In this document: one piece after another, positions 4,204 to 36,224 of the stretch
How the letters are laid out: each line of letters begins with the position of its first letter
How positions within the stretch are numbered: the first letter of the stretch is position 1
Source of the DNA: Sphaerochaetaceae bacterium
GTDB lineage: Bacteria; Spirochaetota; Spirochaetia; Sphaerochaetales; Sphaerochaetaceae
Assembly (NCBI GenBank): GCA_028700425.1
Contig: JAQVSP010000001.1
Span: forward strand, 1,237-65,236
Direction: 5' to 3'
DNA: 64,000 bases
The notes under the pieces: model-generated
Told to the model about the DNA's origin: nothing
Databases searched by the model: none
Seen by the model: only the letters and a program-made list of their open reading frames with translations
Translations under genes and position numbers: made by a program

Positions 4204-4386
4204 CTATTTCTCCAGCTCAACAACCTGCTGACCCTTGTAGTAGCCGCACTTTGGGCAAACTCTATGGGGCAGGATCATATTGCCGCAGGAAGGGCACTTG
4301 CACAAGGTTGGAGCGGCAAGCTTCATGTTTGAAGCCTTTCTTGATGCGGCCTTGGCCTTGGAAGTTTTATATTTTGGAACTGCCAT
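4204..4386 (-). CDS. rpmF: 50S ribosomal protein L32
   Basis: MAVPKYKTSKAKAASRKA... with CPSCG...CPKCG zinc ribbon. Start trimmed to the ATG at 4386, which has an AGGA upstream. Confidence 0.9.
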   Translation of the reverse strand: MAVPKYKTSKAKAASRKASNMKLAAPTLCKCPSCGNMILPHRVCPKCGYYKGQQVVELEK

Positions 4387-4480
4387 TATTTTTTCCTCTC
4401 TTATGAAAAATTCTTTTACGAGAATACCCAATATGCATTCCTTAGTCAACACTTGGGTCAATTATGCAAGAAAAAACTCC

Positions 4481-5833
4481 TTACATCCTCTTTATCAGCC
4501 TGATAGCCATTGGATACATTGGATCGGAGGTCTTTCGCCTATACTCAAAGCCCGGCATGCCGAAGGTCCTGAGGACTATGCAATGGTCCTTGTCGGCTTC
4601 AGTGCTGGTCATGTAGTATGGCTTGTCAAATCCAAAATATGAAAGGTCAATAGGCTCTCCCTTGCTCTTGCTATAGGCAATTACATTGTTGAAATAGCGA
4701 AGAAGCTCGGCCATCTCCGATCTTGAAGGGATGAACCAGCCCTCTCCAAGCGCCTTGATGAAAGGCAGGTCCATCTTAAGGGTGTTTGACAGCCCATCTG
4801 AGTCGGCTCCCGTCAATACGCCATCGCTGCCGTAGGAGAATGCGTTTGACACAAAGCCATCGCTTCCAGTGATCTGCAGATCTGTGTCTGCGGCCTTAAG
4901 ATAGCGCCAGCCCTCTGTTTCCTCTCCCTTGTCATAGAAGCAATAGCCTTGAGGAAAGCCAGAGCTCCTGCAGATGGATATGGTCTTGCTTCGCAGCCCT
5001 AGCGGGCTGATGCAGAAGGCCTCATATTCCTCATCCTCGGCAATCTCAATGGGCTGTGTGTAAAGCCTAGCTTCAAGCTCGCTTGATCGCTTTGCATAGA
5101 TGAAGCTTCCCTTCGGACTTGAAAGCCTGAGCATCGAGGTTTCAATCTCATAGGCAGGCTCTATGGCTCTAGTTATCTCAATGCGCTTGACAACAGCATT
5201 TGCCTTGCCAGCAGTCCTGCAGTCCAGCTTGCATGGCCTTGAGATGCTTATGGCCTGATCATAGAGAGCAAAGGCGGATCCATCGATCCTGAACTCGATC
5301 TTGTCCTTGCCTGAAAGGGTCACAAGCTTCTTCTCTCCAAGAAACAGATCCTTGACGCAGGCCTTGGGAAGCTCTGAAGAGGGGCTGTATGAATAGGATG
5401 CAACCATAGTCTCTGCGATCGAGTCTCCCCTGTTCTCAAGTCCATAGGCCTCGACAACATCCCCATCGCTGAGCTCAATAGGCCCATCGTAGACCTGGAA
5501 GGCCCCATTGCCCTTCCTATAGGCAAGCTTCAGCCCAATTGGAGCGATTATCTCCAGCCTGTCATCCTTCAGCGAGAAAGAGGGAGCTGGAAGGCTTGAG
5601 ACAAGGAAGGTCTCGATAGCCTGGGCTGTGCATCCTTCACAGCAGGCCTTTATCGTCACATCGCCCTTGAAGCACAAGGGCTGGGTGTAGGCAGCTCTTG
5701 TTGCGCTGAAAGAAGGGTCTGTCAAGTCGCTAGTGTAGTAGACAGTTCGGCCATCATGAGAGAATAGCATCACCTGTGCGCCTTGTGTCACTGGACCTGA
5801 AAAGCTTATCACTGGCTTATTATTGTTGTTCAT
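4481..5833 (-). CDS. hypothetical repeat protein: four Ig/Fn3-associated-like modules plus a C-terminal DUF1566-like domain
   Basis: Four roughly 75-aa modules each carry a Y-[TD]-[QG]-[PA]-[LI] motif (AAYTQPLCF, FQVYDGPIEL, FALYDQAISI, ARLYTQPIEI). The C-terminus GEGWFIPSRSEMAELL...YYMTSTE...IRLI resembles the Lcl/DUF1566 pattern. No signal peptide is seen. The family assignment comes from motif memory only. Confidence 0.5.
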   Translation of the reverse strand: MNNNNKPVISFSGPVTQGAQVMLFSHDGRTVYYTSDLTDPSFSATRAAYTQPLCFKGDVTIKACCEGCTAQAIETFLVSSLPAPSFSLKDDRLEIIAPIGLKLAYRKGNGAFQVYDGPIELSDGDVVEAYGLENRGDSIAETMVASYSYSPSSELPKACVKDLFLGEKKLVTLSGKDKIEFRIDGSAFALYDQAISISRPCKLDCRTAGKANAVVKRIEITRAIEPAYEIETSMLRLSSPKGSFIYAKRSSELEARLYTQPIEIAEDEEYEAFCISPLGLRSKTISICRSSGFPQGYCFYDKGEETEGWRYLKAADTDLQITGSDGFVSNAFSYGSDGVLTGADSDGLSNTLKMDLPFIKALGEGWFIPSRSEMAELLRYFNNVIAYSKSKGEPIDLSYFGFDKPYYMTSTEADKDHCIVLRTFGMPGFEYRRKTSDPMYPMAIRLIKRM

Positions 5834-5858
5834 TTTTTGCCTCTGCCTGATTATGCAT

Positions 5859-24302: not shown

Positions 24303-24330
24303 AAAAAAAGAGCAGGATCAGCTCCTGCTC
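24303..24330 (-). terminator. rho-independent terminator after the sigma factor gene
   Basis: Reverse strand reads GAGCAGGA-GCTGA-TCCTGCTC-TTTTTTT. Confidence 0.7.
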
Positions 24331-24350
24331 TTTCTATATCATGGCATTAC

Positions 24351-25202
24351 CTAGGCTGAATATATCTTCAGCTGCTGGAAATCCTCATCGCTTGCAAGCT
24401 TCTTCATCATCTTGCCCTCGATCTGGCGAATTCTTTCCTTTGTAAGGTTATAGAGCTCTCCAATCTCCTTTAGGCTCATCGGATGATTGCCATTCAGCCC
24501 AAAGCGCAGCTCAAGTATGTTGCGATCCTTCTCCGGGAACTTCGCAAGAACCTTGTTTATCTCAGTCTTCAGGCTCTGATCCATGACTACATCATCAGGA
24601 GCCTTCTCATCGCTTTCAATGAACTCTCCTAGTGAGGAGGATCCAGCGACGGTGGTGATCGGCGCCTCAAGACTTGTCATCTCGCGGCTGATCGATATCA
24701 AGGCCCTGACATCATCGCTTTCAAGGTTGCATACTTCTGCAAGCTCCTCAACAGTAGGCTCCTTGCCAGTCTTCTGCTCCAGATGGAACCTGGCCTTCTG
24801 TATGTTGGCTAGGTCAGCTCCCTTGTTCATTGGAAGCCTTATCATCCTGACCTTGTCTCCAAGGCTCTTCAGGATCGCCTGCTTGATCCACCATACTGCA
24901 TAGGATATGAAGTGATAGCCCTTCTCAGGCTCGAACTTGTCTACAGCTGTCATAAGACCTATATTGCCCTCATTGATGAGGTCGATAAGAGGGATTCCCC
25001 TCTTCTGGTATTTCTTGGCTATGCTGACCACGAAGCGAAGGTTTGCCTCTATGACTCGATTGCGGGCGCTAACGTCTCCGGACTTTGCCTTCATGCACAG
25101 ATCATATTCCTCTTCCCTAGAGAGAAGTGGAATGGCTTCAATCTCCTTCAGATACATTGCCAGGAAATTGTCGTCTTCGTTATATAGGCTTGCTTTGTCC
25201 AT
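24351..25202 (-). CDS. RNA polymerase sigma factor, sigma-70 family group 2 (RpoS-like, 284 aa)
   Basis: Region 1.2 (YLKEIEAIPLLSREEEYDL), region 2 (NLRFVVSIAKKY...DLINEGNIGLMTAVDKF...YAVWWIKQAI), and region 4 (MSLKEIGELYNLTKERIRQIEGK). Too short for RpoD, and region 1.2 argues against FliA. Start trimmed to the ATG at 25202 (AAGGAG 7 nt upstream). Confidence 0.8.
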   Translation of the reverse strand: MDKASLYNEDDNFLAMYLKEIEAIPLLSREEEYDLCMKAKSGDVSARNRVIEANLRFVVSIAKKYQKRGIPLIDLINEGNIGLMTAVDKFEPEKGYHFISYAVWWIKQAILKSLGDKVRMIRLPMNKGADLANIQKARFHLEQKTGKEPTVEELAEVCNLESDDVRALISISREMTSLEAPITTVAGSSSLGEFIESDEKAPDDVVMDQSLKTEINKVLAKFPEKDRNILELRFGLNGNHPMSLKEIGELYNLTKERIRQIEGKMMKKLASDEDFQQLKIYSA

Positions 25203-25226
25203 TGTTAAACTCCTTGACAATGACAA

Positions 25227-25242
25227 TGCAAGAATCGTGCCA
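25227..25242 (-). promoter_or_regulatory. sigma-54 (RpoN) -24/-12 promoter
   Basis: Reverse strand reads TGGCACGATTCTTGCA, an exact match to TGGCACG-N4-TTGCW. The -12 GC lies 26 nt upstream of the sigma factor ATG. Confidence 0.75.
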
Positions 25243-25385
25243 AACAACATAACTCCACTAAATACATGATTTAATGCTTATTCTTGATAAGGATGCTAAG
25301 TTGAAACGGGTCATTTTAACCCATCTGCCTCAAAACATATAAAAAAAGGGTCATCTTGACACGTTTTTCTGCAGATTTATCAGAA

Positions 25386-25793
25386 TCAGACACATTTCTC
25401 GAAGAATTGACCCACCTGGGCCTCTTCTGGACACTCTATATCATATGGAAAGTCTATCCTGACCATCTTGTAGAGCCTCCTTGGCTCTGAGAAGAGATTG
25501 ACGTAATCCTTCACGTCCTCCCACTTCTCCTTGATCAAGGCGTAAATCATGTCCCCTTCGCAGAAGCTCATGTTCAGGCTTCTTCTTGAAAGAAGGTAGA
25601 TGGTCATCTGAATCTCAAAGAAGCTATAGAAGTCCTTGTCAATGGAGAGGCATCTTGCGTTGCGGAAGAAGAAAGCGTTGCAGAGGCACCTTAGTGCATT
25701 TGCCAGGTCGGCAGAGCGTGCAAAGACCTTGGCCAGGTCATAAAACTCAGTCCCTGGATCCTTTCTTGTCACATTGCATAGCTGAAAGACCAT
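25386..25793 (-). CDS. hypothetical protein (135 aa, Cys/Phe-rich)
   Basis: GAGGAG SD 8 nt upstream of the ATG. No recognisable family. Confidence 0.45.
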   Translation of the reverse strand: MVFQLCNVTRKDPGTEFYDLAKVFARSADLANALRCLCNAFFFRNARCLSIDKDFYSFFEIQMTIYLLSRRSLNMSFCEGDMIYALIKEKWEDVKDYVNLFSEPRRLYKMVRIDFPYDIECPEEAQVGQFFEKCV

Positions 25794-25889
25794 ACTTTCT
25801 TCTCCTCGAAGGCAAATATAAGCAAAAAAAACGTCCAGGGCAAATATCTTGCTTCACAAATCTACATAAAAAGCCTATGTTGCTTGAAT

Positions 25890-27659
25890 ATGTCAAGAAA
25901 GCAGAACCTCAGGCTCATCAGCCGCGTCTTCTTCAGCCTATGCAGCTTCGGCATGCTATATGCACTTTGCATGAGGCTATTGATATCTCCAGCTCTTGAG
26001 TGGCTCTACGGACTTCTTCTCAAGGCTTTTGGAATCTCCTACCTATCAATGTCAAATATCACTCTTTGCCTTTCTAGGCCTCTGCTTGGACTGGGAGTGA
26101 TTCTTATTGGCTTTCTTTCCGGCTATTTTCTGAGCCTTGAGATAGCAGGCCTGGTATATCTGCTGTCTGAGGCTCAGAAAGGCAGAAAAGCGACCTTGCT
26201 TGAAGCCCTGTGCATCTCCTTTTCATCCTGCCTCAGGCTGTTTATACCATGCAACTGGCCTCTATTACTTTTCTCTGTCGCCCTTCTGCCCAACCTGCCA
26301 ATAGTCTTCTCTACTTCCATAGTGGGCAAGCTTGCCATTCCCAAGTTCATAACAGGAGCCCTGAACACCCCGCTTTTGCTTATACTGTATTCAGCCTTCA
26401 TAGCAGCCATGGTGATTGTCAGTGTCTACGGCTTCTTTGCCTACCATGTCTTCTTCCTGAAAAAGACAAGCGCATGGAAGGCCTATCAAAAGTCCGCTAG
26501 CCTCATCAAGGGCAAGGCAATAAGGACTGCCTGGTCCTTACTGACTTCCCAGCTTTGGGGCTTTCTGCTTACGCTTTTGCTGATAGGCCTCATAGCAGCT
26601 CCCATCCTAATCAACGCCTACCACAACTCCTATGAGATGTCCTCCTACTTTGGCATCTACCTTGGGCTCAAGAGCCTGCTTCTGGTTCTTATAACAAGAG
26701 TGCCTATAGCCTTTGGCTACAGCTGGCTGACAATCGCATATATAGGCAAGGCAGAAAGCCTCAAGGGCTCAAGGACTCGCATCTCGACGATACTGGCCTT
26801 CTTAATCCTTGCCTGCCTCACCGCGCTAGGGTGCATCGCAAGCTGCCTTCTCAGCGCAGAGAAGGCCAAGCAGGGCCCAAGGGCCTCAATTGAGGTCATC
26901 GCCCACAGAGGAGTTTCAGCCCAGGCGCCGGAGAACACCCTGCCAGCCTTTGAGCTAGCACAGCTCTACAGGGCTGACTGGGCTGAGACCGATGTGCAGC
27001 TTACAAGGGACAAGAAGCTTGTCCTTAGCCACGATGCCACGCTCAAGCGTATGCTAGGATCAGACAGCAAGGCCTGTGAGCTGACTCTCTCGGAGATCCA
27101 GAGCTATGACATTGTAAATTGCCCGCCTCAATACAAGGGCCTGAGGCTCTGCACTCTTGAAGATATCCTTATGCAAGACAGGGGCTCAATGAAGATCCTA
27201 ATCGAGCTCAAGACCCAGGGTGGAGATGAAGCCATGCTGGCAAAGGCTGTGCTTGACTGCATCAAGGCTTGCGGCGCAGAAAGCCAATGCGCTGTTCACA
27301 GCGAGAGCCTGGAAGCGCTCAAGGCTTTCAGAAGCCTGGATAGAAGCATTCCAATAGGATGGTGCACTCCAATCATCAAAGGTGAGCTTATTGACATGGA
27401 TGTAGACTTCCTGTCCCTAGAGCAGACCTATCTCAAGGAGGACCTAATAGCATCTGCCCATAAGATGGGCAAGAAGATATATATCTGGACAGTCAATTAC
27501 CTCACCGACATCAGGGCCTGCCTGGAAAAAGGCGCTGATGGAATCAAAACCGACAATGCCCAGGATGCACGGGATGTAATCCAGGCCTCCACTGTCGTTG
27601 ATGCCTTCATATATGATCTAATTAATGACCAAGTTGACTGGGAGCATCTAGACTACTGA
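25890..27659 (+). CDS. membrane-anchored glycerophosphodiester phosphodiesterase
   Basis: Multi-TM N-terminal half, then a GDPD domain (VIAHRGVSAQAPENTLPAFE...ETDVQLTRD). ATG at 25890 is preferred to the TTG at 25884. The start is uncertain. Confidence 0.8.
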   Translation: MSRKQNLRLISRVFFSLCSFGMLYALCMRLLISPALEWLYGLLLKAFGISYLSMSNITLCLSRPLLGLGVILIGFLSGYFLSLEIAGLVYLLSEAQKGRKATLLEALCISFSSCLRLFIPCNWPLLLFSVALLPNLPIVFSTSIVGKLAIPKFITGALNTPLLLILYSAFIAAMVIVSVYGFFAYHVFFLKKTSAWKAYQKSASLIKGKAIRTAWSLLTSQLWGFLLTLLLIGLIAAPILINAYHNSYEMSSYFGIYLGLKSLLLVLITRVPIAFGYSWLTIAYIGKAESLKGSRTRISTILAFLILACLTALGCIASCLLSAEKAKQGPRASIEVIAHRGVSAQAPENTLPAFELAQLYRADWAETDVQLTRDKKLVLSHDATLKRMLGSDSKACELTLSEIQSYDIVNCPPQYKGLRLCTLEDILMQDRGSMKILIELKTQGGDEAMLAKAVLDCIKACGAESQCAVHSESLEALKAFRSLDRSIPIGWCTPIIKGELIDMDVDFLSLEQTYLKEDLIASAHKMGKKIYIWTVNYLTDIRACLEKGADGIKTDNAQDARDVIQASTVVDAFIYDLINDQVDWEHLDY

Positions 27660-27745: not shown

Positions 27746-28006
27746 ATGAATATCAAGCCATTAGGGGAAAGAGTCCTGGTAAGGGACGAAGAGCTCGCAC
27801 AGAAGACTGCTAGCGGAATCATCATTCCACAGACTGCACAGGAAAAGACACAGATCGGTATTGTTGAGGCTGTTGGAAGCGAAGTCAAGCTCATCAATGT
27901 CGGAGACAGGATTCTGCATGACAAGTACTCTGGAACCACCGTAAAGGTGGAGGGCACTGAGTACCTCATCCTCGAGTCAAAGAACGTTCTGGCTATTTTG
28001 GCCTAG
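27746..28006 (+). CDS. groES: co-chaperonin GroES
   Basis: MNIKPLGERVLVR...ASGIIIP...GDRILHDKYSGT. AAGGAG SD. No groEL follows. Confidence 0.9.
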   Translation: MNIKPLGERVLVRDEELAQKTASGIIIPQTAQEKTQIGIVEAVGSEVKLINVGDRILHDKYSGTTVKVEGTEYLILESKNVLAILA

Positions 28007-28055: not shown

Positions 28056-28957
28056 CATGCCAGGAAAAGCAGCATAACCCCGCTTATTGATATCAGGGTG
28101 CCTGCAATGGAGAAGCCGCTGGGCCTCTTGTGGCAATAAAGCAAGTCAATAACTAGAAGAATGACAGGGCTTATCTGAGTTATTGCAGTGACAACCCCAA
28201 GGCTTGCAAGGGTAAAGGCCTTCATCTCAAGGCACATTCCCAGCGCAGGGCCCAGGAAGGCAGCGCTTAGCAGAAGCAGTCCATCAGGCTTCTTGGCCAT
28301 TATCCTGAAGTCGCTGGCCCATTGGCCATTGGCAAGCCTAAATACGGACAAGCTCACAAGGCCTCCAATGCAGCGCACAAGATTCACGCTGTAGGGATCG
28401 ATCTCTGAATTGGCTTTTCTTGCAAGCACAAGGCTCAAGGCCTGAAAGAAGGCTGCCCCTGTTGCAAGAGCTATTCCCTTCAGCCTATTGTCCTTGCTTC
28501 TCCCCCTTCTCTCCTTTTCCAGGTCAGGGTATACAAGGACAATCACGCCTGCCGCTGTCACCATCATGCCTATGGCCTGGCTGATAGTAAGCTTCTGGCC
28601 AAGAAAGAAGAAGGCCATGATTGCAGAAATGCAAGGATTGAGGGTGAATATGCTTACGCTCTCCCTTGGACCTATGTACTGATAGGACCTGATCTGAAAC
28701 ACGTCGGTTATTTAGAAGCCAAGCAAGCCAGAACCAAGCAGATATGCCCAGTCAGATAGGCTAAGGCAGGGACTGATGACACGGCTGTTCATCACAAGGT
28801 TTATGACAATCAGCATGGGAAGAGCAAGGTACAGCCTGACAGAGGCTATTGCATCAGCATCGTTGGTCTTTCCGAGCCTGCTGTATATCAAGGAGTTCTG
28901 GCTCCAGCAGAAAGCCACGACAAGGCTAAAGGCCTGCCCAAGATAGGAACTGCTCAT
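28055..28957 (-). pseudogene. EamA/DMT family transporter interrupted by one in-frame TAA
   Basis: ORFs 28712..28957 and 28055..28702 are in the same frame (their starts differ by 657 = 3x219 nt) and are separated only by the TAA at 28714..28712. Read-through gives ...LLGSGLLGF*ITDVFQIRSYQYIGPRES..., a continuous roughly 300-aa 10-TM EamA architecture. Confidence 0.65.
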
Positions 28958-31068
28958 CAGTAAAGGAATTCCTCGATCTTATTGCAGACCCCTTCGCTCA
29001 GGGTATCGGGGTGATAGCTGTCTGGAAGGCTTCTTATCATGGCAAGCCCATAGTTCTTGGTGACTATCCTGGAATCCAGGATAAGCACAATGCCCTTGTC
29101 GGTGGCGCTTCTTATAAGCCTGCCGAATCCTTGCTTAAGGCGCATCGTGGCATCTGGAACCGACAGCTCAAAGAAGCTTGAGCCTCCATCCTTCTCGATT
29201 CTCTCGCTTCTTGCCTGGAAGACCGGCTCATCAGGGGCTGTGAACGGCAGCTTCACAATTATGACCATTCTCAAGGTGTTGCCCGGCGCATCAACCCCTT
29301 CCCAGAAGGAGTTGGTTGCAAAGAGGCAGGAATCCTCGTCGGCCTTGAAATCCACAAGCAGCTTCGCCCTGTCAGATTTCTTGCTCTGAAGAAAGGTATT
29401 GATGCCATGGACCTGAAGCTGAGGGGCCAGCTCATGGTGTATGTCCTCCATAAGAGACTGGTTGGTGAAAAGAGCAAGGCATCCACCCCCTGAGGAGAGG
29501 ATGGCATCACGTATCATGGCCTTGACGTAAATCAGGAAGGCTTCCATGTTGTCCTTGCTGTATCTAGGGGAATCTGCTGGGGTCAGCAGCAGAAGATTAT
29601 GCTGATAGTCAAAGGCAGAGGCGTAGATCGCCTTTATCATAGGCTTTTGGCAAAGGTTAAGCCCTACTCTTCTCATCCAGAAGGCAAAGTCATCGTTGAG
29701 GTCCATGGTAGCCGAGCAGCAGACGATGCTTTCAATCCTTGAGAACAAGGTCTTGTTGAGTATCTCTGCAACTGACAGAGGGGCAAGGCAGACATTGAAT
29801 ATCTGCTCGTTTCTCCTTGTCTCGCGTTCAAGGAAGTGCACCCAGTTATCATCGGTGAAGGCGCAGAAGCTCTTCAGGATATTGCCAAAGTCCTCGAAGT
29901 TCTTCTGAAACACATCAAACTCCTCGATGCGTCCCACTGGAGTGTCCTTTGCCTGCAGGGACTCTGAAAACTCCCTAAGCCTGGCAGCTGCACGGAATAG
30001 TGTCTCCTGAACCTGGACGGCAACTGGGAAGAACTCCTTAAGCCGGGGCAAGCTCTTCTCTTCGGCCTTGACCAGGTAGCTTGTTCTGCCCTTGAGTTCA
30101 TTGAAGAAAAGCTGAAGGTAGGAGTCAAGGGTGACAGTGCGCTCTCCAAGGAGCTTGAGTATGTCAGGTATTACGTCCACCACATCCTTCTTCTCTGAAA
30201 AGGGAATGAGGCTCTCAAAGGCGCTTTTCCCGCTGAAGCGCCTCTGGTTGAACTTGTAGATCAGTCTACGAACTGAATGTCCGCTGTATACCGAGGAGAA
30301 GAGGTCGGTTGCATTGCGCTCCATGTTATGAGCCTCGTCCACCACAAGGCTGGAGAAGGCTGGCAGCAGGCAATCCTCGTCATATTCGACAAAGCCCTCG
30401 TCTCTCATGCTTGCATCTGTGAAAAGAAGATGATGGTTGGTGATTATGATCCTGGACTCAACAGCCTGATGCTTTGCCTTCTGATAGAAGCAATCCTGGG
30501 CAAAGGGGCACTTGAAGCCGGCGCAGGTCTCAAAGTCGCTGCACACATCAGCCCATAACGAGGGGTCGCTGAAGTTGAATGGCAGGTCAGTCCTTGAGCC
30601 TGGAAAGTCATTCCTAAGGCACCAGGCAAGCTTTCCTTCATCCGTCTGCGGGTCTTCAGCCAGCAAGGGCTGCTGGGCAATCCTCTCCTTGGCTCTTCTC
30701 TTGCATAGATAGTTGGAACGGCCAAAGAGCACTGAAACAGTCACCTTCTTTCCCAGGCAGTCAAAGACTGAGGGAACATCCTTGTCAAAGAGCTGGCGCT
30801 GAAGGTTGATTGTGGAGGTGGCTATGACAACACGCTTGTCTGGATTCTCGAGGCAGTTTAAGAGGTGGGGCACCAGGTAGGCAAAGCTCTTGCCTATTCC
30901 GGTCCCTGCCTCAATGGCGGCAACGCAGCCTTGGTTTATGGCATCGGTGACATTGAGGGCCATCTGGACCTGCTCTTCCCTGTATTCATAGCCTGAAAAG
31001 GATCTCGACAGAATGCCATCAGTGTCGAAGACCTTCAGGATGTCGTCATGATTCATCCGCTTCCCCAT
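28957..31068 (-). CDS. DinG/XPD-family ATP-dependent DNA helicase (Fe-S type)
   Basis: AIEAGTGIGKSFAYLVP Walker A, DEAH box (VVDEAHNM), and a four-Cys cluster region CSDFETCAGFKCPFAQDCF. The start could be 31068 or 31056. Confidence 0.8.
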   Translation of the reverse strand: MGKRMNHDDILKVFDTDGILSRSFSGYEYREEQVQMALNVTDAINQGCVAAIEAGTGIGKSFAYLVPHLLNCLENPDKRVVIATSTINLQRQLFDKDVPSVFDCLGKKVTVSVLFGRSNYLCKRRAKERIAQQPLLAEDPQTDEGKLAWCLRNDFPGSRTDLPFNFSDPSLWADVCSDFETCAGFKCPFAQDCFYQKAKHQAVESRIIITNHHLLFTDASMRDEGFVEYDEDCLLPAFSSLVVDEAHNMERNATDLFSSVYSGHSVRRLIYKFNQRRFSGKSAFESLIPFSEKKDVVDVIPDILKLLGERTVTLDSYLQLFFNELKGRTSYLVKAEEKSLPRLKEFFPVAVQVQETLFRAAARLREFSESLQAKDTPVGRIEEFDVFQKNFEDFGNILKSFCAFTDDNWVHFLERETRRNEQIFNVCLAPLSVAEILNKTLFSRIESIVCCSATMDLNDDFAFWMRRVGLNLCQKPMIKAIYASAFDYQHNLLLLTPADSPRYSKDNMEAFLIYVKAMIRDAILSSGGGCLALFTNQSLMEDIHHELAPQLQVHGINTFLQSKKSDRAKLLVDFKADEDSCLFATNSFWEGVDAPGNTLRMVIIVKLPFTAPDEPVFQARSERIEKDGGSSFFELSVPDATMRLKQGFGRLIRSATDKGIVLILDSRIVTKNYGLAMIRSLPDSYHPDTLSEGVCNKIEEFLY

Positions 31069-32410
31069 AGCTCTGGAGCTTTCTGAAGAGCGTCTTCCTT
31101 CCTATTCCAAGCACCTCGCTGGCCTTGGACTTGTTTCCATTGCAAAATCCCAGCGTTGCCATTATGAAGGCTTTCTCAGCTTCATCCATGGTCGAGCCCA
31201 AGGGAATGCTTATCTCGCTGGAGCCCTTGAATGAGGACACCTGGTAAGGCAGGTCGCTAAGCTCTATCTGGCTTGTGCGGCAGAGAACCACTGCGCTTTC
31301 TATGGCGTTGCGAAGCTCCCTTATATTGCCAGGCCAGCTGTAGCGGAACAAGGCGTTTCTTGCTTCATTGGAGAAGCCGGTTATGCTTCTGCTGTTCTCC
31401 TTTGCAAAGGTCTCCAGGAAGTTCTGGGCCAGAAGCGGAATATCGTCCTTTCTGTCGCGCAAAGGCGGAACCTCAAGATGAACGACGTTGAGCCTGTAGT
31501 AAAGATCCTCTCGGAAGCTGCCCTTGCGGATCTCCTCCTCAAGGTTGCGGTTGGTTGCTGCTATTACACGCACATCCACATTGATTGTCTTCTGTCCACC
31601 TACTCTCTCAAAGGCCATCTCCTGAAGCACGCGCAGGATCTTTATCTGTATCGACTGGTTTATCTCTCCTATCTCATCCAGGAAGATCGTTCCTCCGTCA
31701 GCCAGCTCAAAGCGTCCCTTGGACTGAGTGACTGCTCCTGTGAAGGCGCCTTTCTCATGGCCAAAGAGCTCGCTTTCAAGAAGGCCTTCTGCAAGAGCCA
31801 TGCAATGGACCTTCACAAAGGGCTTGTCCGCTCTATTGGAGGCCTTGAATATCGCATCAGCCACAAGCTCCTTTCCAACTCCGCTTTCTCCAGTAATAAG
31901 GACCGAGGCCTTGGTTGGTGCAACCTGGCCTATCACCTCCATAAGGCGAGTAACGCTCTGGTTCTTGCCTATGATGCGCTTGAAGCTGTCCTTGGCTTCC
32001 AGGGCATTGACCTGAGCCTGCAAGGCCTCGTTTCTGCTTGCCAGCTCTGAGTTCTGGAAGATCTTCTTCAAGAGCACAGACAGGTGTGCCAGATTTACAG
32101 GCTTTGTCAGGAAATCGGAAGCTCCGTTTCTCATTGCCTGAACAGCGGTCTCCACTGTTCCATGGCCTGTGAGCACAATGATGGGCAGCCTTGGGTAGGC
32201 GGCAGTGGCCTTCCTTAAAAGCTCCTCGCCGGTTAGCTCCGGCATCCTGAGGTCTGTAATGACGCAATCTGGGTTCTGGGAGTTGATCAGGTTCCAGGCT
32301 TGCAGGCCGTCAGCGGCCTCGATTGTCTTGTAGCCTTCTCTCTCAAGGGCGATTGAAAGACCCGCCCTGATGGAGGATTCATCATCCGCAATGAGTATTG
32401 TTCTAGCCAT
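31046..32410 (-). CDS. sigma-54-dependent response regulator (NtrC family; Rrp2-like)
   Basis: Receiver domain (ILIADDE...TDLRMP), AAA+ domain with GESGVGKE and GAFTGA (GHEKGAFTGA), and a C-terminal Fis-type HTH. Confidence 0.9.
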   Translation of the reverse strand: MARTILIADDESSIRAGLSIALEREGYKTIEAADGLQAWNLINSQNPDCVITDLRMPELTGEELLRKATAAYPRLPIIVLTGHGTVETAVQAMRNGASDFLTKPVNLAHLSVLLKKIFQNSELASRNEALQAQVNALEAKDSFKRIIGKNQSVTRLMEVIGQVAPTKASVLITGESGVGKELVADAIFKASNRADKPFVKVHCMALAEGLLESELFGHEKGAFTGAVTQSKGRFELADGGTIFLDEIGEINQSIQIKILRVLQEMAFERVGGQKTINVDVRVIAATNRNLEEEIRKGSFREDLYYRLNVVHLEVPPLRDRKDDIPLLAQNFLETFAKENSRSITGFSNEARNALFRYSWPGNIRELRNAIESAVVLCRTSQIELSDLPYQVSSFKGSSEISIPLGSTMDEAEKAFIMATLGFCNGNKSKASEVLGIGRKTLFRKLQSYGEADES

Positions 32411-33599
32411 TGTTCGCCTCCAGTCGCATTCGCTCGCTCTGAGGAACAGGCAAGGTGACAGTGAATGAAGTGCCCTCGCCCTCCTCGCTGATCAGCCCGA
32501 CCTCGCCGTTGTGCTCCTTTATGACCTTGAAGAAGACAGTAAGCCCAAGTCCTGTGCCCTTTGCCTTTGTTGTGTAGTATGGCTCGAAGATCTTGGTCTG
32601 GTTGGCCTTGCTGATGCCCATTCCATTGTCGCTGACAATGATTTCCACATGATTGCCGGAGAACTTGCTGGAAAGGGTTATCTGGCCCTTGAAGCCAGGA
32701 ATCGCCGCCTGCTTCTCCTCCAAGGTCTGCTGGGCATTGTAGATTAGGTTCAGAAGCGCCTGGTTCAAGAGGTTCTGGTCCAAAAGCAGCTTTGGCGCCC
32801 TCTTGTCAAGCTGCAGCACAAGCTCGATGCCCTTCTGCTCCAGATCGGGGTGCACGAACTCCTCCAGGCTGATGAGAAGAGGGTTGATATCCTGAAGCTT
32901 GAGCTTGCTGTCCATGGGGCGGACAGCAAACAGGAAGTCGACTACGATCGAATCGAGCCTGTCAAGCTGACTTGACATGATCCCAATGTACTTTCTTGCT
33001 GTGTCAGGATCTATAGATCCTTTCTCATCCAGGTCCTGTGCCAGGAGCTGCAGATAAATGCTTATTGAAGCCAGCGGATTCTTTATCTCATGGGCAACTC
33101 CAGCTGCCATTGTCGTCATGGCCGCAAGGCTCTCGTTGCGCCTAAGCTTGGCGCTGTCCTTTCGGGCCTGGGTGACATCGGTCAGGCACATAAGGATCAC
33201 GCTCTTGCTTTCAAGAAGCTTGTCGGTGAGAATAAGCCTTATGACAACGGTCTTCAAGGATCCCAGCGTGTCGAAGGTGAACTCCTTCTCGGAATTGGTG
33301 TAGGTGTCCTGGCTGGCAAAATCCTTGAGATAAGTCAGCACGTCAGCATCGGCTATGAACTTGGATGCCTTGGAGGAAGGGACCTGATAGCGAGGCCTGA
33401 CAGGCATGAGGCTGTTGACAATCCGGTTGGTGTAGATCACGCTCAAGTCCCTTGAAAGTATGACAAGGCCTCTTTCTACAAGGTCAAGAAGGCTGTCCAG
33501 CATACCAAGCTCCTTTTGCTGGTTGTCAAGGATATCCTGTATGACCTGAGGCTCAAGCTGGCTTATCCTGGCTGCAGCCTTTTCTATGAAGCGCTTCAA
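32403..33599 (-). CDS. cytoplasmic PAS-domain sensor histidine kinase (Hk2-like)
   Basis: No TM segments. PAS-like N-terminus, H-box AAGVAHEIKNPL, and N/G boxes (NLIYNA, DNGMGI, GTGLGL). 8-nt overlap with the regulator gene. Confidence 0.85.
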   Translation of the reverse strand: MKRFIEKAAARISQLEPQVIQDILDNQQKELGMLDSLLDLVERGLVILSRDLSVIYTNRIVNSLMPVRPRYQVPSSKASKFIADADVLTYLKDFASQDTYTNSEKEFTFDTLGSLKTVVIRLILTDKLLESKSVILMCLTDVTQARKDSAKLRRNESLAAMTTMAAGVAHEIKNPLASISIYLQLLAQDLDEKGSIDPDTARKYIGIMSSQLDRLDSIVVDFLFAVRPMDSKLKLQDINPLLISLEEFVHPDLEQKGIELVLQLDKRAPKLLLDQNLLNQALLNLIYNAQQTLEEKQAAIPGFKGQITLSSKFSGNHVEIIVSDNGMGISKANQTKIFEPYYTTKAKGTGLGLTVFFKVIKEHNGEVGLISEEGEGTSFTVTLPVPQSERMRLEANNG

Positions 33600-34702
33600 T
33601 TGTTCAGCATCCCCCTTATCTCGTAGCTTAGCGCAGTCAAGGTAAGGCTGGCGCTTTGATTATAGACAAGGGCGCTCTTGCAGAGGCGGTTTATCGCCTC
33701 CTGCATCCTGCGAGCCTTGTCGTACTTGATCTTTCCGCTTCTGAAGGCCTCCTGGGCCTCTCTTGAAAGCATCTCATAGAACCAGGATGTCATGTCGCAC
33801 CTTGCCATCTCGTCGCAGGCCTGCCTTATGCCCTCATCCCTGCCTTGGATGATTGAAGCTGCACAATCCTTGAGAGCCTTGAGGTTGATGTTCGAGCTGG
33901 CGAGAAAAAACTCCTCAAGACTGCTGTAGCCTGTCGGGTCCACTCTCATCACAGAAGAAAGCAGGCTTCTGGTCATCTGCTCATCCAGGGCCTTGAAGGA
34001 ATAGCGGCGAAGACGGGACAGGATTGTTGGCATTATCCTCTCTGCCTTGGAGCTTATCATGATGAAGTAGGTGTTCTCCGGCGGCTCCTCAAGAGTCTTC
34101 AGCAGTGCGTTCTTGGCAGCATCGTTGGCATCCTCTATGCCCTCTATGATGATGAGCCGGGGCTTGCCGGAAGCTGTGGTGTCAGAGGCCCACTTGCCAA
34201 TCAGCCTTGCCTGGGCTATGGAGACTCCGCCGGTCTTGCGGCAATTGGCAAGAACCTTCTGGCAGCTTGCCCTCAGGGTCTTGCAGAAGGCTGGAACCTC
34301 GTCCTCGTGGATCATCTTCAGAGCCTTGAGGCTGTCGCTTATATCGCATGCAAGAGCGAAGTTTGGCTTCTCAGAGGCGCTTGCGCACTGGGCCATGGCC
34401 CCATTGTACTGAAGAAGAAGGACGCTTAAGGTCCTTTGAAGGATATCCCTGCTTGCGTTGTTCCTGGCCTTTTCAAAGTTGTTGATTGCAGATTCAACCA
34501 GCATCTTCTGCTCTCGTCTGGAGATGATCAGCATGTCGCCAAGGCTGCAGCCCAAGGCCTCAGCCACGCAAAGAGCAGCATGCATTCGCCCTGTGTACCG
34601 AGGACCCGCAAAGAGCATGGCATAAGGAAGCAGCCCCTTTTCAAGCTGCTCCTCCAGGATCAGAGCGTTCTCCTTCTGGGTCAGCTCAAGAGTGTCAAGC
34701 AT
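33596..34702 (-). CDS. DNA polymerase III delta-prime-like clamp-loader subunit
   Basis: Degenerate P-loop FAGPRYTGRM, and NALLKTLEEPPENTYFIMIS...ILSRL (SRC-like) motifs. Confidence 0.65.
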   Translation of the reverse strand: MLDTLELTQKENALILEEQLEKGLLPYAMLFAGPRYTGRMHAALCVAEALGCSLGDMLIISRREQKMLVESAINNFEKARNNASRDILQRTLSVLLLQYNGAMAQCASASEKPNFALACDISDSLKALKMIHEDEVPAFCKTLRASCQKVLANCRKTGGVSIAQARLIGKWASDTTASGKPRLIIIEGIEDANDAAKNALLKTLEEPPENTYFIMISSKAERIMPTILSRLRRYSFKALDEQMTRSLLSSVMRVDPTGYSSLEEFFLASSNINLKALKDCAASIIQGRDEGIRQACDEMARCDMTSWFYEMLSREAQEAFRSGKIKYDKARRMQEAINRLCKSALVYNQSASLTLTALSYEIRGMLNN

Positions 34703-35162
34703 TCACCAGTCTCCCGCCAGTATCCAGGATCCAGGATAGGATGTTGGTGATGATCCAGCTTTCGTCAAAGATCGGGCCAAGGGTTATGAAGTCGAGGCTT
34801 GCTATAAGCGCATAAAGCAAGGCCAGCACCACAAGGGCCTCTGCAATGCCCAGCACAAAGCCCAGGGCATGATTTACAAAGCCAATCCTTATGGCATCCA
34901 AGGCCTTTGCAAGAAGCGCTCCCAGGCCTCTTATCAGGAAGAAGAAAAGGACATAGAGAATGACATAGCTCAAGAAGAGGGACCAGAATGCATCGAAGGG
35001 GAACAGCGCAGACAGGTCCTTGGCAAACACTAGGGCGAATACCAGGGAGAAGACATAGCCGAACTTGCGAAATACGCTGTCTATAAAGCCATAGATGGCG
35101 CCTGCAACGCCCCCCAGCAGGCAAATGAAGCATAGCACCCAATCGACAATGTTAAAGCTCAT
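34695..35162 (-). CDS. CvpA family membrane protein
   Basis: 155 aa with four predicted TM helices. N-terminus MSFNIVDWVL...GGVAGAIYGF is typical of CvpA. Confidence 0.7.
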   Translation of the reverse strand: MSFNIVDWVLCFICLLGGVAGAIYGFIDSVFRKFGYVFSLVFALVFAKDLSALFPFDAFWSLFLSYVILYVLFFFLIRGLGALLAKALDAIRIGFVNHALGFVLGIAEALVVLALLYALIASLDFITLGPIFDESWIITNILSWILDTGGRLVNA

Positions 35163-36201
35163 CCAGATCCTCCTTGATCAGCCTTGCTATCAAGCCTGCA
35201 GGGTTTTCATTGCTGCCCTGCTGGTGGCGATCCTCAAGCCTGAAGCTCATCACAGTTTGCACCAGAAGAGAATAATCGTCAATCACCAAGGCCTTGTGGA
35301 GACTTTGCTGGATCCGTGCATTCTCTATCTGGTCTCCTCTTGAAGCCCCTAGGGAAAGAGGCACAAGCACCATAGGCACCCCAAGGGCGCTTAGCTCAGC
35401 GATAGTCCCTGCCCCGGATCTGCTAACACATAGCGAAGAAGCCTTCATGGCCCCTCCAATGTTCTCTATGAACTCAAGAGGAAGGTAGTCCTTTTTCCTC
35501 TCGGCAGTCATCTTCCCCCTGCCGGTCTGATGCACAACGAAGAATCTCTTGCAGATTGTGTCTAGAGCCTTGATGATTGCATCGTTCAGGCCGGCAGCCC
35601 CCTGAGAGCCTCCAAGGACAAGGAGAATGGGCTTGCTGGCTCTTATGCTGTATTGCTTGAGAAAGGCATCAGCCGATGCATCCAGAACCTCCTGCCTTAT
35701 GGGGTTGCCTGTGTAAACACCGTTCCTGAGGGCCTTGGCGCATTGCTCATAGCCGCAGAACACAAGCCTGCTTGAGCCTTTGTTGAGCCTGGTAGCCAAG
35801 CCTGGGGTGCTGTCAGACTCGTGGCTGTAGACAGGGATGCCCAAGATCCTTGCGGCAAGCACCGGACCAAAGGACACATAGCCTCCCTTTGAAAAAAGAG
35901 CGGCAGGCCTTCTTGAAGCAAGTATCCTTCTTGCCTGGAAGAAGCCAAGACCTACATTGAAGGCATCTGAGAAATTCTGCCATGAAAAATAGCGCCGCAG
36001 CTTGCCGGATCTGATGGGCAGGAACTCAATGCCCTTGGATTGGACTGATTGTCTTTCAAGAGAATCCTCGCGTCCTATGTAGAACAGCTCATAGCCATAG
36101 GCTCTGAGACACTCGGCCACAGCCAAGGCAGGCTCCACATGGCCCAGTGTTCCTCCGCCTGTGATTGCGATTAAATTGCAGCTTCGTCCTTTTCTATTCA
36201 T
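35152..36201 (-). CDS. murG: undecaprenyldiphospho-muramoylpentapeptide beta-N-acetylglucosaminyltransferase
   Basis: ITGGGTLGHVEPALAV G-loop and a C-terminal GAGTIAELSALGVP. ATG at 36201 is preferred; an alternative TTG lies at 36207. Confidence 0.85.
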   Translation of the reverse strand: MNRKGRSCNLIAITGGGTLGHVEPALAVAECLRAYGYELFYIGREDSLERQSVQSKGIEFLPIRSGKLRRYFSWQNFSDAFNVGLGFFQARRILASRRPAALFSKGGYVSFGPVLAARILGIPVYSHESDSTPGLATRLNKGSSRLVFCGYEQCAKALRNGVYTGNPIRQEVLDASADAFLKQYSIRASKPILLVLGGSQGAAGLNDAIIKALDTICKRFFVVHQTGRGKMTAERKKDYLPLEFIENIGGAMKASSLCVSRSGAGTIAELSALGVPMVLVPLSLGASRGDQIENARIQQSLHKALVIDDYSLLVQTVMSFRLEDRHQQGSNENPAGLIARLIKEDLDEL

Positions 36202-36224
36202 CTTCAAATCATTATACTGTATTC

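Follow-up and report, generated by a model that had tools for sequence, protein, structure and literature searches.

The window analysed here, a stretch of 64,000 nucleotides (nt) from a Sphaerochaetaceae bacterium (assembly GCA_028700425.1, contig JAQVSP010000001.1), carries what we consider, with a probability of roughly 85%, to be a complete control region through which sigma-54 would govern the gene of a second sigma factor, together with a probable cognate two-component activator encoded nearby. The controlled gene (25202..24351, minus strand) encodes an alternative sigma-70-family factor of 283 amino acids (aa) in which Pfam regions 1.2, 2, 3, and 4 are recognized. It is preceded by a sigma-54 (-24/-12) promoter and, further upstream, by a pair of 17-bp palindromes, and the genes of a histidine kinase and an NtrC-type response regulator are found 5.8 kb upstream. 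The arrangement recalls the Rrp2-RpoN-RpoS pathway of Borrelia, the switch at the center of virulence control in Lyme disease spirochetes, which is still described as unique or distinctive; the first-pass annotation of this window had noted that this cascade is usually treated as a Borrelia hallmark, a fair description given that a 2025 review calls it "unique." The same annotation had proposed that a Borrelia-like sigma cascade also exists in the present lineage, and promoter conservation, the tandem enhancer, and the shared gene order support this proposal. The evidence for the cascade is sequence comparison throughout, and on that evidence the system is classed here as an enhancer-dependent member of the Borrelia-type cascade.

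The promoter, TGGCACGATTCTTGCA, occupies positions 25242..25227 on the minus strand, which is the sigma gene's own strand. It is preceded there by TT, and the minus strand from the promoter region through the start codon reads gtTTGGCACGATTCTTGCAtt. It matches the RpoN consensus exactly and is composed of TGGCAC (25242..25237) and TTGCA (25231..25227), whose GG (25241..25240) and GC (25229..25228) doublets are ten bases apart, and the ATG at 25202 stands 26 nt after the -12 C. These features had been described in the first-pass annotation and were recovered unchanged, as was its observation that the window holds only one TGGCAC-N5-TTGC, since a pattern scan of the 64 kb returned this single exact match. 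Neither a second sigma-54 promoter nor a second enhancer was found in the window, and a consensus scan revealed no sigma-70 promoter in the spacer 25203..25385.

Conservation of the promoter was assessed in orthologous loci obtained from species-representative genomes (80 loci), from metagenomes (80 loci), and, in a few cases, by exact protein look-up. The sigma proteins encoded at these loci are 46–63% identical to that of the window, and the lineages covered include Sphaerochaeta, Pleomorphochaeta, Ornithospirochaeta, Sediminispirochaeta, Oceanispirochaeta, Spirochaeta, Rectinema, and Treponema. For the 153 non-identical loci that extend upstream by 200 nt or more, the number of matches, out of 10, to TGGCAC-N5-TTGC was taken as the score, and 9763 control windows taken from the same orthologous loci were scored likewise. 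A match of at least 8/10 was found at the same place in 152 of the 153 loci, compared to 7.4% of the controls, and a match of at least 9/10 in 145 loci, compared to 43 control windows (0.44%). The full 10/10 match occurs in 73 loci and in none of the controls. Flanking positions that did not enter the score also fit the extended sigma-54 consensus, with T before TGG in 86% of cases, G or A after CAC in 80 and 20%, respectively, and W after TTGC in 100%. Moreover, relative to the sigma open reading frame (ORF), the motif takes each of the three possible phases (36, 53, and 63 loci), and an in-frame stop separates the two in 77 of 152 loci, so that its conservation is not a matter of coding constraint. 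On this comparison, the -24/-12 element before the sigma gene is under strong purifying selection across the class Spirochaetia.

Upstream of the promoter lies the pair of 17-bp palindromes, a feature that goes beyond what had been noted at first pass. An unbiased count of 7-mers in the 200 nt upstream of the -24 element of 150 loci revealed enrichment of GTCAAAA (68 loci compared to 6 expected), TGTGTCA (56 compared to 3), and TGGGTCA (47 compared to 2.7), which combine into the palindrome TGtGTCA-WWW-TGACaCA. This palindrome is present in 147 of 149 loci, of which 102 hold two copies, 21 hold three, and 24 a single one. The copies are mostly located 70–200 nt upstream of the -24 element, and of about 145 neighboring pairs, 117 are spaced by exactly 40 bp and 11 by 41 bp. 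The density of sites upstream of the promoter reaches 8.6 per kb, compared to 0.07 per kb in 1.16 Mb elsewhere, which corresponds to a 120-fold enrichment. In the window, the proximal upstream activator site (UAS-2; TGGGTTAAAATGACCCG, read on the minus strand, 25323..25307, centered at about -99) scores 19.3 bits, and the distal one (UAS-1; CGTGTCAAGATGACCCT, likewise read on the minus strand, 25363..25347, centered at about -139) scores 12.6–13.7 bits. They stand 40 bp apart from start to start and are, in this order, the two best matches to the family matrix in all 64 kb. By number, geometry, and position, the paired palindromes are read as a canonical tandem NtrC-type enhancer.

The combination of such a site with a promoter of at least 9/10 within the following 40–260 nt was encountered 150 times in 1.4 Mb of spirochete DNA, and 148 of these cases are the sigma gene, the remaining pairs among all loci being two weak singletons (L027 and L103). 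The module thus looks dedicated to a single target, and because 148 of the 150 enhancer-promoter pairs belong to it, the sigma gene may be the regulator's only target, as has been proposed for Borrelia. Apart from the pair itself, a single enhancer-like match in the window exceeds 11 bits, namely TGCGGCAATATGATCCT at 4271..4287 (11.7 bits), which has no -24/-12 element nearby and is probably due to chance. Single strong palindromes of 17.7–22.4 bits were also seen in L088 (653..669), L092 (559..575), and L121 (1269..1285), 8.6–9.4 kb upstream of the sigma gene. In L088 the palindrome precedes cvpA, which opens the kinase-regulator operon, by about 50 nt and hints at autoregulation by the regulator; no equivalent site was found ahead of the regulator operon in the window.

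Sigma-54 geometry, with initiation 11–14 nt after the -12 GC, places the predicted transcription start at 25214..25217 on the minus strand. A start near 25216 would leave a leader of about 12–15 nt that opens at the Shine-Dalgarno sequence AAGGAG (25215..25210, minus strand), 7 nt before ATG 25202. Across the family, the -12 C typically stands 28 nt before the ATG (median; interquartile range 24–33), and a core resembling the Shine-Dalgarno sequence precedes the chosen ATG in 122 of 148 orthologues. The conserved distance implies that a leader opening at the ribosome-binding site is the norm of the family and not an oddity of the window. Public gene callers start the sigma gene at ATG 25250, giving 299 aa, and relatives are called at 297 or 302 aa; a start at 25250 would put the promoter inside the coding sequence. 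We favor ATG 25202 because of the Shine-Dalgarno sequence and because many homologues are called at 282–285 aa, and the ORF beginning there yields one residue less than the 284 aa given in the first-pass annotation. The comparison indicates that public start calls for this sigma gene are systematically over-extended upstream, hiding the promoter in the coding sequence. Just 3′ of the gene, a strong predicted intrinsic terminator (24335..24305, minus strand), composed of a 13-bp stem followed by a T-run, would make the sigma gene monocistronic.

A leader hairpin at 25222..25200, which would pair the ATG only in read-through transcripts, was considered as a possible switch and rejected for lack of conservation, the median z being -0.13 over 127 loci, with the AUG paired in 28% and a z of -0.5 in the window. 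Leaders of 82–92 nt, compared to the family norm of about 13 nt, are found in four Treponema-type loci (L052, L060, L084, and L085), and some of them, e.g., those of L052 and L085, contain obvious inverted repeats. These long leaders possibly represent an added layer of post-transcriptional control, recalling the 50-nt leader of Borrelia. In Treponema maltophilum ATCC 51939 the leader of the sigma gene is also unusually long, extending 203 nt after the -12 element.

The proposed activator is encoded at 31046..32410 (minus strand) and combines Response_reg, Sigma54_activat, and HTH_8 domains. Its PF00158 (Sigma54_activat) match has a value of 3.2e-71 and the GAFTGA motif lies at residues 221–226, in line with the NtrC-type enhancer-binding protein that the first-pass annotation had reported within 31046..33599. 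GAFTGA or a near variant (GSFTGA, GAFSGA) was found in 13 of 13 regulator orthologues examined. The kinase (32403..33599, minus strand) carries HisKA, with H170, and HATPase_c, and its maximum 19-residue hydropathy of 1.26 predicts no membrane helix, in keeping with the cytoplasmic part of its earlier description as a cytoplasmic PAS kinase. Upstream of the pair, and transcribed in the same direction on the minus strand, are a holB-like gene (33596..34702), cvpA (34695..35162), and murG (35152..36207), all three as first described. This murG-cvpA-holB-kinase-regulator order of the window is also found in L001 and L088. A DinG/YoaA-like helicase gene (28957..31068, minus strand) overlaps the end of the regulator gene and is one of the conserved genes that separate the regulator from the sigma gene; in 37 of the 80 genome loci it is found no more than 3 kb upstream of the latter. 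In at least 13 loci the string recurs as cvpA, holB, kinase, regulator, DinG-like helicase, then groES, and finally the sigma gene and pyruvate phosphate dikinase. In three loci (L161, L163, and L168) the regulator gene adjoins the enhancer-promoter-sigma unit, about 0.7–1.6 kb upstream.

From these elements, the following circuit can be proposed. The cytoplasmic kinase (32403..33599) would phosphorylate the NtrC-type regulator (31046..32410), whose dimers would then bind the palindromes at 25363..25347 and 25323..25307, which, being 40 bp apart, should lie on the same face of the helix. The bound regulator would form an active AAA+ ring and loop to RNA polymerase-sigma-54 at 25242..25227, where its GAFTGA loop would drive open-complex formation. 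Transcription from near 25216 would produce a monocistronic mRNA with a very short leader, encoding the 283-aa sigma factor and ending at the terminator 24335..24305. The product, an RpoD-like alternative sigma factor, would finally redirect RNA polymerase to its own regulon.

The sigma protein lacks region 1.1 and starts at region 1.2 (residues 15–43). It scores about equally against SigA/RpoD proteins (201–221 bits) and Escherichia coli RpoS (193 bits), far lower against FliA models (111 bits), and below all NCBIfam equivalog cut-offs. Those for the housekeeping RpoD/SigA proteins are missed by a wide distance (274 compared to a cut-off of 555 bits, and 260 compared to 572). In the comparison with proteobacterial RpoS, the position equivalent to K173 is Ala129 in this protein and is invariant across the family.

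In Borrelia, rpoS (BB0771) has a sigma-54 promoter 62 bp before its ATG; it requires Rrp2, and its transcription start, located 14 nt past the GC, disappears when rpoN is mutated. Rrp2 (BB0763) activates rpoS without an enhancer, no binding having been detected within 238 bp upstream, and BB0771 itself is seen as a divergent RpoS that goes back to an rpoD duplication of its own. The hk2 gene (BB0764) lies immediately upstream of rrp2, and BB_0765, cvpA, and murG (BB_0767) are consecutive in a published table, so that the gene context given in the first-pass annotation for hk2-rrp2 is correct. The window thus resembles the Borrelia cascade in its order murG, cvpA, X, hk, rr (the Borrelia order being taken from published text and tables), in which the regulator and the kinase are the positional counterparts of Rrp2 and Hk2. 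It further shares the -24/-12 promoter placed immediately before the gene of a compact, RpoD-like alternative sigma factor, the NtrC-type activator gene with receiver (REC), AAA+, and helix-turn-helix (HTH) domains beside a cytoplasmic histidine kinase gene, and the location of the sigma gene within a few kb of the regulator.

Other sigma-54 systems offer further comparisons. Enterobacterial NtrB-NtrC acts at glnAp2 by looping from tandem 17-bp palindromes of the 7-N3-7 type with TG...CA ends, located about 100–140 bp upstream of the -24/-12 promoter. The window shares with it the two-component kinase and enhancer-binding regulator, the site geometry, the TG...CA ends, and the positions of the sites. 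However, the target here is a sigma-factor gene and not nitrogen assimilation, the half-site is TGTGTCA instead of TGCACCA, and the spacing is 40 bp instead of about 32 bp. In Vibrio, Pseudomonas, and Legionella, sigma-54 and an enhancer-binding protein transcribe the gene for the sigma factor FliA, but this flagellar factor belongs to group 3 and to a flagellar hierarchy, whereas the one in the window is group-1/2-like, with regions 1.2 to 4. Among non-Borrelia spirochetes, the Hpk2-Rrp2 pair of Treponema denticola (TDE1970/TDE1969) comprises a PAS-type cytoplasmic kinase and a predicted sigma-54 enhancer-binding regulator, of which it has been written that "Rrp2 remains unstudied." The window kinase is a probable positional counterpart of Hpk2, and Treponema species carry the same promoter and enhancer before the sigma gene. 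We found no report of RpoN control of an RpoS-like sigma factor outside Borrelia in full-text searches, which did not take in several older papers possibly containing a prediction for T. pallidum. Early genome scans by Studholme and Buck are said to have predicted sigma-54 promoters in T. pallidum.

Several observations weigh against the circuit proposed here or against its relation to Borrelia, and they have to be considered together with the alternatives that they favor. Shuffled versions of the window contain on average 0.26 exact matches to TGGCAC-N5-TTGC, with at least one in 21 of 100 shuffles, and one-mismatch matches in the window itself (5 compared to 6.2 expected) are at background, so that the bare exact match alone is within chance for 64 kb. 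The significance of the promoter comes instead from its position, orientation, and conservation. That the motif is fortuitous, or part of an N-terminal coding extension of the sigma factor (the 299-aa ORF from ATG 25250 that gene callers annotate), has in our view a vanishingly small chance of being correct. Its retention in the orthologues far above the controls, its appearance in every reading phase, its separation from the ORF by an in-frame stop in half of the loci, and the Shine-Dalgarno sequence and ATG that follow at a conserved distance speak against it, and orthologue conservation together with the phase and stop analysis refutes it. With respect to the trans-acting components, Pfam detected no PAS domain in the kinase even at E ≤ 1, a PAS domain being implied only by the alignment of the kinase with the AtoS equivalog over its PAS-HisKA-ATPase part. 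A search with an RpoN-box regular expression and with tblastn, using T. maltophilum RpoN, found no rpoN in the window, nor in the fetched loci except L169 of T. maltophilum. In that genome (ATCC 51939) the orthologous sigma gene is preceded, at a distance of 4 kb, by a gene for a 460-aa RpoN with Sigma54_AID, CBD, and DBD domains and the box ARRTVAKYR, which is followed by hpf, hprK, and ptsH (features at 4459..5841 and 9784..10001 of L169), and T. maltophilum and T. brennaborense each have the sigma gene promoter with two or three enhancer sites. Because the window encodes a GAFTGA activator, and because a published survey found that sigma-54 and its activators co-occur near-perfectly, rpoN is probably present in the genome of the window organism as well. 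Of the 28 loci whose upstream flank reaches 9 kb or more, just 10 encode a regulator orthologue (56–65% identity) no more than 10 kb ahead of the sigma gene, so the pairing of this regulator with this target rests on partial linkage. The promoter could accordingly be real with its palindromes bound by some other enhancer-binding protein or by another type of transcription factor, which we judge to be quite improbable. Where the regulator gene is linked to the sigma gene, as it is in many lineages, it may directly adjoin the enhancer-promoter-sigma unit, as in the three loci mentioned above, or keep the recurrent gene order of at least 13 loci, and the published survey gives spirochetes an average of one or two such activators. 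The NtrC-like 7-N3-7 palindrome would also suit the HTH_8 (Fis-type) domain of the regulator, and the single sites of L088, L092, and L121, one of them ahead of cvpA, point in the same direction. The palindromes are thus most plausibly bound by the neighboring regulator.

The relation to Borrelia is a separate matter. The sigma factor had been called RpoS-like, and it falls well short of the proteobacterial RpoS equivalogs TIGR02394 and NF004207 (272 compared to a cut-off of 378.7 bits, and 262 compared to 394); the term is therefore apt only if taken to mean that the factor is compact, RpoD-like, and devoid of region 1.1. A family-profile search covering 1.84 billion representatives, in which cluster names were looked up for 10 AT-rich matches, gave no candidate for Borrelia RpoS among the best 150 representatives by a composition screen and a positional test of I79, R121, and K122. 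Borrelia RpoS would thus be either very divergent or not an orthologue of the window sigma factor. The two systems also differ in layout. The family of the window has two conserved palindromes 40 bp apart, whereas none is detectable in Borrelia; its predicted leader is about 13 nt long, whereas that of Borrelia rpoS has 50 nt and leaves the mRNA unstable unless BosR is bound. Furthermore, rpoS of Borrelia follows flgI-flgJ on the murG side, whereas the sigma gene here lies downstream of the regulator, past the DinG-like helicase and groES genes. These points, and the published view that the highly divergent BB0771 stems from its own rpoD duplication, would fit a circuit that works as described and is not homologous to the Borrelia cascade, its sigma factor being an unrelated RpoD duplicate that came independently under sigma-54. 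We regard such independent recruitment as rather unlikely, given that the window and Borrelia have the five genes murG, cvpA, X, hk, and rr in the same order, and that both the target class, a compact sigma factor without region 1.1, and the promoter class are the same. The module is moreover present in Sphaerochaeta-, Treponema-, Rectinema-, and Spirochaeta-type lineages, so parsimony favors one origin. Borrelia RpoS has at position 122 a lysine with a proposed role in promoter selectivity, and K127 of the window protein (K or R across the family) aligns with it when an offset is allowed, which is weak evidence. Orthology of the sigma factors themselves rests on synteny and parsimony, and we infer from these that the module shares ancestry with Hk2-Rrp2-RpoN-RpoS of Borrelia. 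The distribution suggests that the circuit from sigma-54 to a sigma factor is a general, class-wide feature of the Spirochaetia. We lean, with some reservation, toward a scenario in which the kinase/regulator/sigma-54/sigma module with its paired enhancer is ancestral to the whole class, including Treponema, and in which the Borrelia pathway arose from it by reduction, losing the enhancer and acquiring the BosR-dependent leader.

The neighborhood of the circuit showed some further features. A regulator C-terminus was sought upstream of the DinG-like helicase in distant loci and rejected, as a RadC/JAB-like segment with "HNHPSG" is found there instead. In the first 100–250 nt of L023, L054, L067, and L078 this segment lies directly upstream of, or is fused to, the helicase and takes the position held by the regulator gene in the window. 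Immediately upstream of the enhancer, a 135-aa ORF (25386..25793) belongs to no Pfam family and is kept, at 27–42% identity and in constant position, only in Sphaerochaeta-like relatives. The groES (Cpn10) gene (27746..28006) is divergent upstream of the sigma gene, with no groEL within 3 kb, and the same holds in 59 of the 80 genome loci, which makes it an unusually well conserved neighbor. A membrane glycerophosphodiester phosphodiesterase is encoded at 25884..27659 as one ORF of 591 aa in the window and is called as two genes (293 and 221 aa, or 111 and 464 aa) in L001 (7592..9361) and L002 (1340..3109). These split calls come from metagenome contigs encoding a sigma protein identical to that of the window, which suggests frameshift variation between strains or assembly errors. 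Finally, L006, a contig labelled Selenomonadaceae, has the top sigma identity among the genome matches (59%), carries the spirochete-type promoter, and encodes a pyruvate phosphate dikinase 75% identical to that of the window; it is probably mis-binned.

If an enhancer-bearing form of this module is indeed present in free-living and host-associated spirochetes, several puzzles of Borrelia biology, namely the signal sensed by Hk2-Rrp2, the enhancer independence and the essentiality of Rrp2, and the ancestral "RpoS" regulon, would become open to study outside Borrelia, cultured carriers of the module including T. maltophilum and T. brennaborense. The analysis also shows that the start codons annotated for this sigma factor in public records are in many cases placed too far upstream, which masks the promoter. 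For Rrp2 of T. denticola, the module would provide a concrete predicted target together with a defined candidate DNA site.

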